Origin: Struthio camelus
Taxonomy: Eukaryota
Assembly (NCBI RefSeq): GCF_040807025.1
Contig: NC_090970.1
Span: forward strand, 773,359-837,358
Length of the DNA: 64,000 nt
Reading direction: 5' to 3'
Positions 39,594-39,734 of this stretch are shown piece by piece. How positions within the stretch are numbered: the stretch's first letter is position 1; every line of letters starts with the position of its first letter. Below the pieces are notes generated by a model that searched no databases, had not been told where the DNA came from, and worked only from the letters and a program-made list of their open reading frames with translations. Both the position numbers and the translations under genes were made by a program.

Positions 39594-39734
39594 CATGAAG
39601 ACGGTGCGGCCGTCGCCGGGGGCGCCCGTCACCAGGAAGCGGTTGCCGGGGCCGCGGCGGATGGCGGTCGCCGTGGCGACGAGGAGGCGGCGCCGGGCCA
39701 CGCCCACGGCCTGCTGGGCCGCCAGGAAGGAGCC
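39594..39734 (-). CDS. TEP1: TEP1 E22, NACHT P-loop: GSFLAAQQAVGVARRRLLVATATAIRRGPGNRFLVTGAPGDGRTVFM.
   Basis: Acceptor tccctccctgcag, donor ATG|gtgggg. Human RLSLVTGQSGQGKTAFL; this sequence has R where human has the Walker A K. Confidence 0.8.

Follow-up and report, generated by a model that had tools for sequence, protein, structure and literature searches.

The question raised by this locus is whether the NACHT domain of a bird TEP1 gene truly carries an arginine in the place of the Walker A lysine, and what such a replacement would mean for the domain. The Walker A lysine touches the beta and gamma phosphates and is the usual mutation target when switches of this kind are to be killed. 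The DNA analysed, referred to here as the window, is a stretch of 64,000 nucleotides with a GC content of 60–80% throughout. An initial annotation had placed the arginine in an exon at positions 39594–39734 and had kept a sequencing or assembly error as a fallback explanation.

Using tblastn, residues 301–2610 of a lizard TEP1 were found to be colinear with the minus strand of the window from 60684 down to 1774, over about 59 kb, and most of the gene, from the TROVE domain through the C-terminus, therefore lies inside the window. The domains follow the colinear order TROVE, DUF4062, NACHT and WD40, and the best library matches are annotated as TEP1. A gene model, first of ten and then of twelve exons, was built over DUF4062, NACHT and the following helical domains, with AG/GT boundaries at all exons and no stop codons. 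On the minus strand, DUF4062, a TIR-like NADase domain, is encoded by three exons within 41855–43373 (43373–43204, 43053–42957 and 41973–41855), which are followed by the exon preceding that of the P-loop (40639–40756, SYGCEWGG...VWELLQRRFLQ; tblastn and exon model). Downstream of the P-loop exon are a further NACHT exon (38302–38507, AGLVGALQE...VAYHFAGARPDQ...; tblastn and exon model), the Walker B exon (37258–37399; exon model), another NACHT exon (36854–37036, RVTLVLSAAEG...GRRLDRGPLESQ; tblastn and exon model) and a helical-domain exon with a conserved lysine and a PLYL motif (35472–35564, MGLVLGKAGSRQPLYL...; exon model), this lysine being retained in all birds. Birds for which sequence is available at these sites have lost, or keep only in degenerate form, two motifs that do not vary from rays to mammals, namely GITExE after DLRWG in the NADase domain (43204–43230, minus strand) and YGKKLEExxFNNQ in the NACHT region (36854–36900, minus strand).

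A search against Pfam matched DUF4062 with 54 bits (cut-off 24.7), with AAA_16 and NACHT matches also obtained. The match to NACHT (PF05729) reached 17.4 bits in the window, under the cut-off of 26.7 and against 111.8 bits for a human fragment, so membership of the NACHT family rests on orthology and fold. It should also be noted that at the locus of the great potoo (Nyctibius grandis) a TsaD/OSGEP-like gene lies upstream of TEP1, and that the window ends too near the 5′ end of TEP1 to show OSGEP.

The exon at 39594–39734 (minus strand) encodes strand beta-1 of the NACHT domain and the Walker A P-loop. Its reverse complement translates in frame 1 as GSFLAAQQAVGVARRRLLVATATAIRRGPGNRFLVTGAPGDGRTVFM, and the exon encodes ...RFLVTGAPGDGRTVFM; it is flanked by ctgcAG before and GTgggg after, and it fits in frame in the ten-exon model. 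The Walker A motif, GAPGDGRT (consensus GxxxxGK[ST]), lies at 39603–39626, and the codon at 39606–39608, which occupies the position of the Walker A lysine of human TEP1, about K1174 by an offset derived here, is CGC for arginine, the codon string ggc gac ggc cgc acc being exactly as first annotated. Searching by tblastn with a human-identical TEP1 fragment (P0007) and a guinea-pig fragment (P0012) gave colinear exons in the window, in which GNRFLVTGAPGDGRTVFM is paired with GRLSLVTGQSGQGKTAFL. The end of the P-loop exon after FM/FL is common to the window, mammalian genomic ORFs (P0010 and P0016) and five other birds, the junction after ..LQ likewise matches these mammalian ORFs and birds, and the donor site stands at the same position in all bird genomic loci that were read. 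As the exons are colinear and end alike, the alignment is anchored and not offset, and both the identity of the feature as the TEP1 NACHT P-loop and its alignment with the human Walker A lysine, as initially proposed, were borne out.

The limits given for this exon held at the 3′ end, which matches that of mammals and birds, and are less certain at the 5′ end. An in-frame acceptor (ggggcAG) lies 24 nt upstream of 39734, with which the exon would start at 39758 and gain the residues GGAGPSLQ (39735–39758). These resemble the ..PPSLQE/..PPSPQA found in the first segment of the P-loop exon in other birds, where the exon starts 8–10 codons further upstream. Of the two acceptors, the downstream one (39735/39734) is preceded by the better pyrimidine tract. 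With the earlier start in other birds and an in-frame acceptor at hand, the limit of 39734 is uncertain and the true start may be 39758, a choice which leaves the P-loop unaffected.

Within the window's GC-rich repeats, 36 chance matches to the bare pattern G..G.GR[ST] were counted; the motif alone is therefore meaningless, and it is homology and exon structure that carry the observation. No G..G.GK[ST] was found in any frame of the window, and tblastn with the P-loop exon returned a single match in it, so the exon is unique. An alternative exon bearing the lysine, or a duplicate of the exon, within the window was ruled out on these two results.

The introns at 33922–35220, 35573–36848, 37523–38260, 38766–39477, 39775–41434 and 42017–42952 consist almost wholly of GC-rich minisatellites with units of 21–31 bp, such as GGGGCCCAGGCGTCCGGGGAG and CCCATATATGGGCAC... 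These arrays give rise to very long spurious ORFs on both strands, and one ORF of 554 amino acids (39084–40748) spans the P-loop exon. Minisatellite introns around the P-loop exon explain the concern in the initial annotation that the region is a difficult one.

The comparison of TEP1 across birds, reptiles and mammals, suggested with the initial annotation, gave arginine in all birds sampled and lysine in the reptiles and mammals. The P-loop is GEPGCGRT in hoatzin, GAPGSGRT in cuckoo, GQPGSGRS in great potoo, GEPGDGRT in northern pintail and GEPGVGRT in a bird contig (ENA ERZ2800308) that matches UniParc UPI000739AE82. At the genomic loci the arginine is encoded by CGC in hoatzin, cuckoo and pintail, by CGG in potoo and by AGG in the ENA contig. 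Lysine was found in box turtle, tuatara, three lizards, three snakes, opossum, human and guinea pig, and also in caecilian, toad, lungfish, paddlefish, bowfin and two rays. The ENA contig (509 bp) comes from a metagenome assembly and carries a bird TEP1 P-loop exon, presumably as host DNA; its GC content is lower, at 0.68, and its flanking intron contains repeated ATGCAAAT-like units.

These codons bear directly on the fallback of a sequencing or assembly error, under which the true codon would be AAG or AAA. The minisatellite-filled introns on either side of the P-loop exon and a window GC content of 70–79% are the kind of setting in which such an error could be suspected, but five further bird sequences, drawn from separate assemblies, have arginine at this site and encode it with three different codons. 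To reach CGC from AAR would further take two or three base changes, and the exon occurs only once in the window. The chance of such an error is vanishingly small and this explanation is effectively excluded; on the alignments obtained, the arginine is real, all of the birds sampled having it and none of the other vertebrates sampled, and the change is read as an old replacement in the bird lineage.

Further afield, an exhaustive HMMER search returned 550 relatives, and the P-loop was taken from the best 150 of these. Lysine is present in about 140 other STAND representatives among them, and the only non-avian arginine among the approximately 150 representatives is that of one bacterial protein (P0055, GRS). 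As the representative library was clustered at 50% identity, a lysine-bearing bird paralogue could stay hidden in this comparison. Two bacterial STAND-type relatives from metagenome-assembled genomes were seen to be missing the Walker A lysine, P0055 (Microbacteriaceae, GAGRS) and P0119 (Rectinemataceae, GIGTS), the latter annotated as containing DUF4062, which points to sporadic natural loss of this lysine elsewhere in the family.

Other searches returned fewer informative sequences. A word-indexed search with the spliced protein of the window yielded only bacterial DUF4062 proteins and one duck fragment lacking the P-loop, and the same type of search with the 51-residue exon gave no matches; with the human segment it gave mammalian fragments only, all of them GKT. 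A metagenome scan with a degenerate DNA pattern that was unbiased between lysine and arginine codons found 24 loci, none of them TEP1, and the P-loops recovered by tblastn from 19 of these loci all have lysine.

On the lineages compared, the replacement took place after birds had split from turtles and before the duck lineage parted from those of hoatzin, cuckoo and potoo. The comparison sequences included neither a crocodilian nor a palaeognath, and the change is therefore dated only between the turtle split and the duck–Neoaves split.

The downstream Walker B segment had initially been described as intact. The sequence LVVLVDDADAL is present at 37341–37309 (minus strand), with the hhhhD pattern and a second acidic residue, and the magnesium-binding aspartate is kept, so that this part of the description stands. 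The position that follows is altered, being aspartate in five of the five birds with sequence there, against glycine (DGAD) in twelve non-avian vertebrates. The bird versions are DDAD, DDGE, DDAE, DDPA and DDAH, and the second acidic residue is thus missing in two birds, the ruddy duck (DDPA) and the bird of the ENA contig and UniParc record (DDAH). Both the Walker A lysine-to-arginine and the Walker B glycine-to-aspartate replacements are uniform among birds, whereas most other bird-specific replacements differ from bird to bird, and the two may be coupled.

The composition and rate of the gene were also considered. The modelled coding sequence has a GC content of 0.78 and a GC3 of 0.95. Lysine accounts for about 1% of the residues of the region in most birds, with 3.3% in the short fragment from pintail, compared with 3–6% in most other vertebrates and 1.7% in the turtle, and the six conserved-lysine columns are occupied in birds by lysine in two cases, arginine in three (Walker A included) and aspartate in one. 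Of the residues at 143 sites with a conservation of 90% or more among non-avian vertebrates, birds retain 65–82% and each non-avian lineage 94–100%, the latter figure being somewhat inflated as those sequences define the consensus. On shared columns, turtle and tuatara are 0.69 identical, birds and tuatara 0.39–0.46, and two birds 0.56 to each other. Judged from these alignments, the rate at which the gene evolves in birds is several times that in other vertebrates. With the GC-rich composition and this fast evolution, the lysine-to-arginine change is found in a gene that experiences strong GC pressure and weakened constraint.

A gene of this kind might be taken for a decaying pseudogene in which the arginine is one neutral lesion among many. 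Its fast protein evolution, with a dN/dS of 0.4–0.6 for the window against three birds (high, and a rough estimate from BLAST segments for window-containing pairs only), and its many lost motifs would fit such decay. The dN/dS is nevertheless below 1, the twelve modelled exons contain no stops or frameshifts and have canonical splice sites throughout, and colinearity with lizard TEP1 extends over about 59 kb. The NADase glutamate and the P-loop are moreover conserved across birds, and RefSeq models exist in four of them. Decay of the locus is thus highly improbable and, like the sequencing error, effectively excluded. It was also observed that the RefSeq TEP1-like models of the potoo (P0026 and P0170) leave frame after the exon following the P-loop and enter low-complexity sequence. 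The potoo genome (L005, 20966–21106) still encodes a good Walker B exon, RLVLLLDDAEAL, and the departure from frame seems to stem from the annotation and not from decay of the gene.

Within this fast-evolving gene the P-loop is, on the bird alignments, a conserved island. The mean pairwise identity between birds is 0.58 over the region and 0.82 in the P-loop, V-T-G-x-P-G-x-G-R is invariant in six birds, and the Walker B aspartate, the lysine of LGK.GS and the PLYL motif are retained in birds. The arginine itself probably arose by a single A-to-G change, AAG to AGG, the latter codon being still present in the bird ENA contig. As AGG is one transition away from AAG, a path from AAG through AGG and CGG to CGC is suggested, the later steps of which would be synonymous and would have taken place in a gene driven to extreme GC.

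The predicted structure of the domain agrees with its assignment. AlphaFold2, run with an alignment of 60 sequences, gave a model with a pLDDT of 89.9 and a pTM of 0.88, in which a strand at residues 72–76, a loop and a helix from R83 (the arginine in question) form the strand, P-loop and helix arrangement around the Walker A motif. Matches of the model in Foldseek were to Apaf-1, ORC/Cdc6, ZAR1 and NLRP5. Apaf-1 is the closest solved fold by TM-score (TM 0.51, rmsd 6.7) and ranks third by E-value after two ORC chains. An NBD-HD1-WHD fold of the STAND/AAA+ type is confidently predicted. No solved structure of a TEP1 NACHT domain was found, the PDB holding the TIR-like domain only (11gz_A).

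The neighbouring NADase domain appears still to be competent in its main catalytic residue. According to two 2026 preprints, the DUF4062 domain of TEP1 is a TIR-like NADase with the catalytic glutamate E1008 and is active inside vaults. The equivalent of human E1008, mapped via an offset derived here from the guinea-pig fragment, is the second glutamate of TELE (codon at 41940–41938, minus strand), a residue that the window shares with four other birds. R954 and R976 have their counterparts as well. The equivalent of R908, at which alanine lowered the activity of TEP1-TIR according to a 2026 preprint, is leucine in the window (CTG, 43337–43335, minus strand) and in northern pintail, and arginine in hoatzin, cuckoo and potoo. 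One 2026 preprint proposes an Apaf-1-like model in which sensing by the WD40 repeats leads to oligomerisation through the NACHT ATPase and then to activation of the NADase. A term search of one 2026 TEP1 preprint found no report of Walker-motif mutants, and birds are not mentioned in the available text of either.

The favoured reading for bird TEP1 has a probability put at about 0.6: the pocket would still bind nucleotide and hydrolyse it poorly, and NACHT, in a nucleotide-bound state, would serve in assembly or as a scaffold and not as a cycling ATPase, as the outcome of an old change fixed in birds. The P-loop glycines, the arginine, the threonine or serine, the magnesium-binding aspartate, the PLYL motif and the predicted fold are conserved in birds, which suggests that the pocket is not decaying and that the domain most likely still binds nucleotide. 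By extrapolation from other proteins, the arginine, together with the adjoining Walker B change from glycine to aspartate, would most likely slow or abolish hydrolysis, and hydrolysis is probably impaired. In NLRP3, K232A reduces ATP turnover to 0.34-fold and gives no ASC specks, while G303E, at the equivalent Walker B +1 position, reduces turnover to 0.12-fold (PMC9633759). The Walker A motif of NLRs is described as practically invariant and as required for ATP binding and oligomerisation (PMC7583971). On this reading, bird TEP1 would hold a nucleotide-bound assembly or scaffold module next to a NADase that retains its glutamate. The suggestion in the initial annotation, that the module only binds nucleotide or acts as a scaffold, is plausible.

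It is rather unlikely, though well within consideration, that the NACHT domain of bird TEP1 is instead a pseudo-ATPase that binds no nucleotide and only links the NADase structurally to the WD40 repeats. The low Pfam score (17.4 against 111.8 bits) and the loss of several vertebrate motifs in birds leave some probability for a complete loss of binding, and the 65–82% retention of otherwise conserved sites, the two birds without the second acidic Walker B residue and the near abolition of ATP binding by Walker A mutations in several NLRs (PMC7583971, where the residue changes are not given) point the same way. An unused loop would, however, be expected to drift, yet the P-loop glycines, the arginine and the threonine or serine are invariant or nearly so in six birds despite a mean identity of 58%, and the Walker B aspartate, the PLYL motif and the lysine before it are kept. 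Such conservation of motifs would also fit a working site, and it could be supposed that the arginine is functionally equivalent to lysine and that the ATPase cycle is kept, perhaps because the co-fixed aspartate at Walker B +1 compensates for the longer side chain of arginine. The uniformity of the two replacements in every bird with sequence, unlike most other bird replacements, and the GRS of the unrelated bacterial STAND protein P0055 would be in line with this. It is judged the less probable of these two alternatives, as arginine occurs only in five birds and that one bacterial protein among about 150 representatives, the Walker A motif of NLRs is described as practically invariant (PMC7583971) and an acidic residue at Walker B +1 cuts the turnover of NLRP3 8-fold (PMC9633759). 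Retained binding with poor hydrolysis is thus still preferred.

Compared with its mammalian orthologues, the human one included, the gene in the window shares the domain order, the exon junctions around the P-loop, a DUF4062 domain with the catalytic glutamate, the Walker B aspartate and the PLYL motif. It differs in having GRT instead of GKT and DDAD instead of DGAD, in the loss of YGKKLEExxFNNQ and GITExE, in the leucine at the R908 equivalent, in an identity of about 43% over the region and in its sub-threshold Pfam NACHT match. The engineered Walker A lysine mutants of related proteins, such as NLRP3 K232A, concern the same residue, motif and class of fold, with a 3-fold lower turnover and abolished signalling in NLRP3 (PMC9633759), and Walker A mutations in NLRC4, NLRP1, NLRP7 and NLRP12 cut ATP binding or oligomerisation (PMC7583971). 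These mutants represent laboratory loss of function, whereas the bird change is natural, fixed across the birds sampled and under purifying selection. In RecA and Rad51, replacement of the Walker A lysine with arginine keeps ATP binding and blocks hydrolysis.

Apaf-1 has the same NBD-HD1-WHD architecture with WD40 repeats C-terminal to the ATPase, but its ATPase is NB-ARC and not NACHT, its effector is a CARD and not a NADase, and its P-loop is a canonical GKS/T. Bacterial DUF4062/NIR-STAND defence proteins (Avs-type, Swarozyc and Vulcan/Vesta) likewise have a DUF4062 NADase fused to, or working with, a STAND-type NTPase. The bacterial representatives matched by the NACHT query of the window, in which the presence of DUF4062 was not checked individually, have GK[ST]. 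These systems are prokaryotic, keep the canonical lysine (P0055 with GRS excepted) and have neither a TROVE domain nor a vault context.

Literature searches on natural arginine in Walker A or on bird TEP1 brought up no earlier description of the change, which represents a novel natural variant in a known kind of protein; its relevance has been raised by the recent discovery of the TEP1 NADase. It is possible, although on the whole doubtful, that birds possess a natural P-loop-mutant STAND switch, with the Walker A lysine-to-arginine and Walker B +1 glycine-to-aspartate changes fixed together, on a TEP1 with a still-competent vault NADase. The variant also illustrates cleanly how a catalytic residue that is normally invariant can be replaced under extreme GC pressure, lysine to arginine being the expected direction of drift. 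TEP1 binds vault RNA and is needed for its incorporation into vaults (PMC11855390). A comparison of bird with mammalian TEP1, or of arginine-to-lysine with lysine-to-arginine mutants, would address the need for hydrolysis by NACHT in vault assembly, in the loading of vault RNA and in activation of the NADase. If birds do possess such a switch, their NADase would be activated without a cycle of ATP hydrolysis or would be locked in one state, and the group would offer a natural experiment, on the scale of a whole lineage, as to the part played by the NACHT ATPase in the function of TEP1 and the vault.
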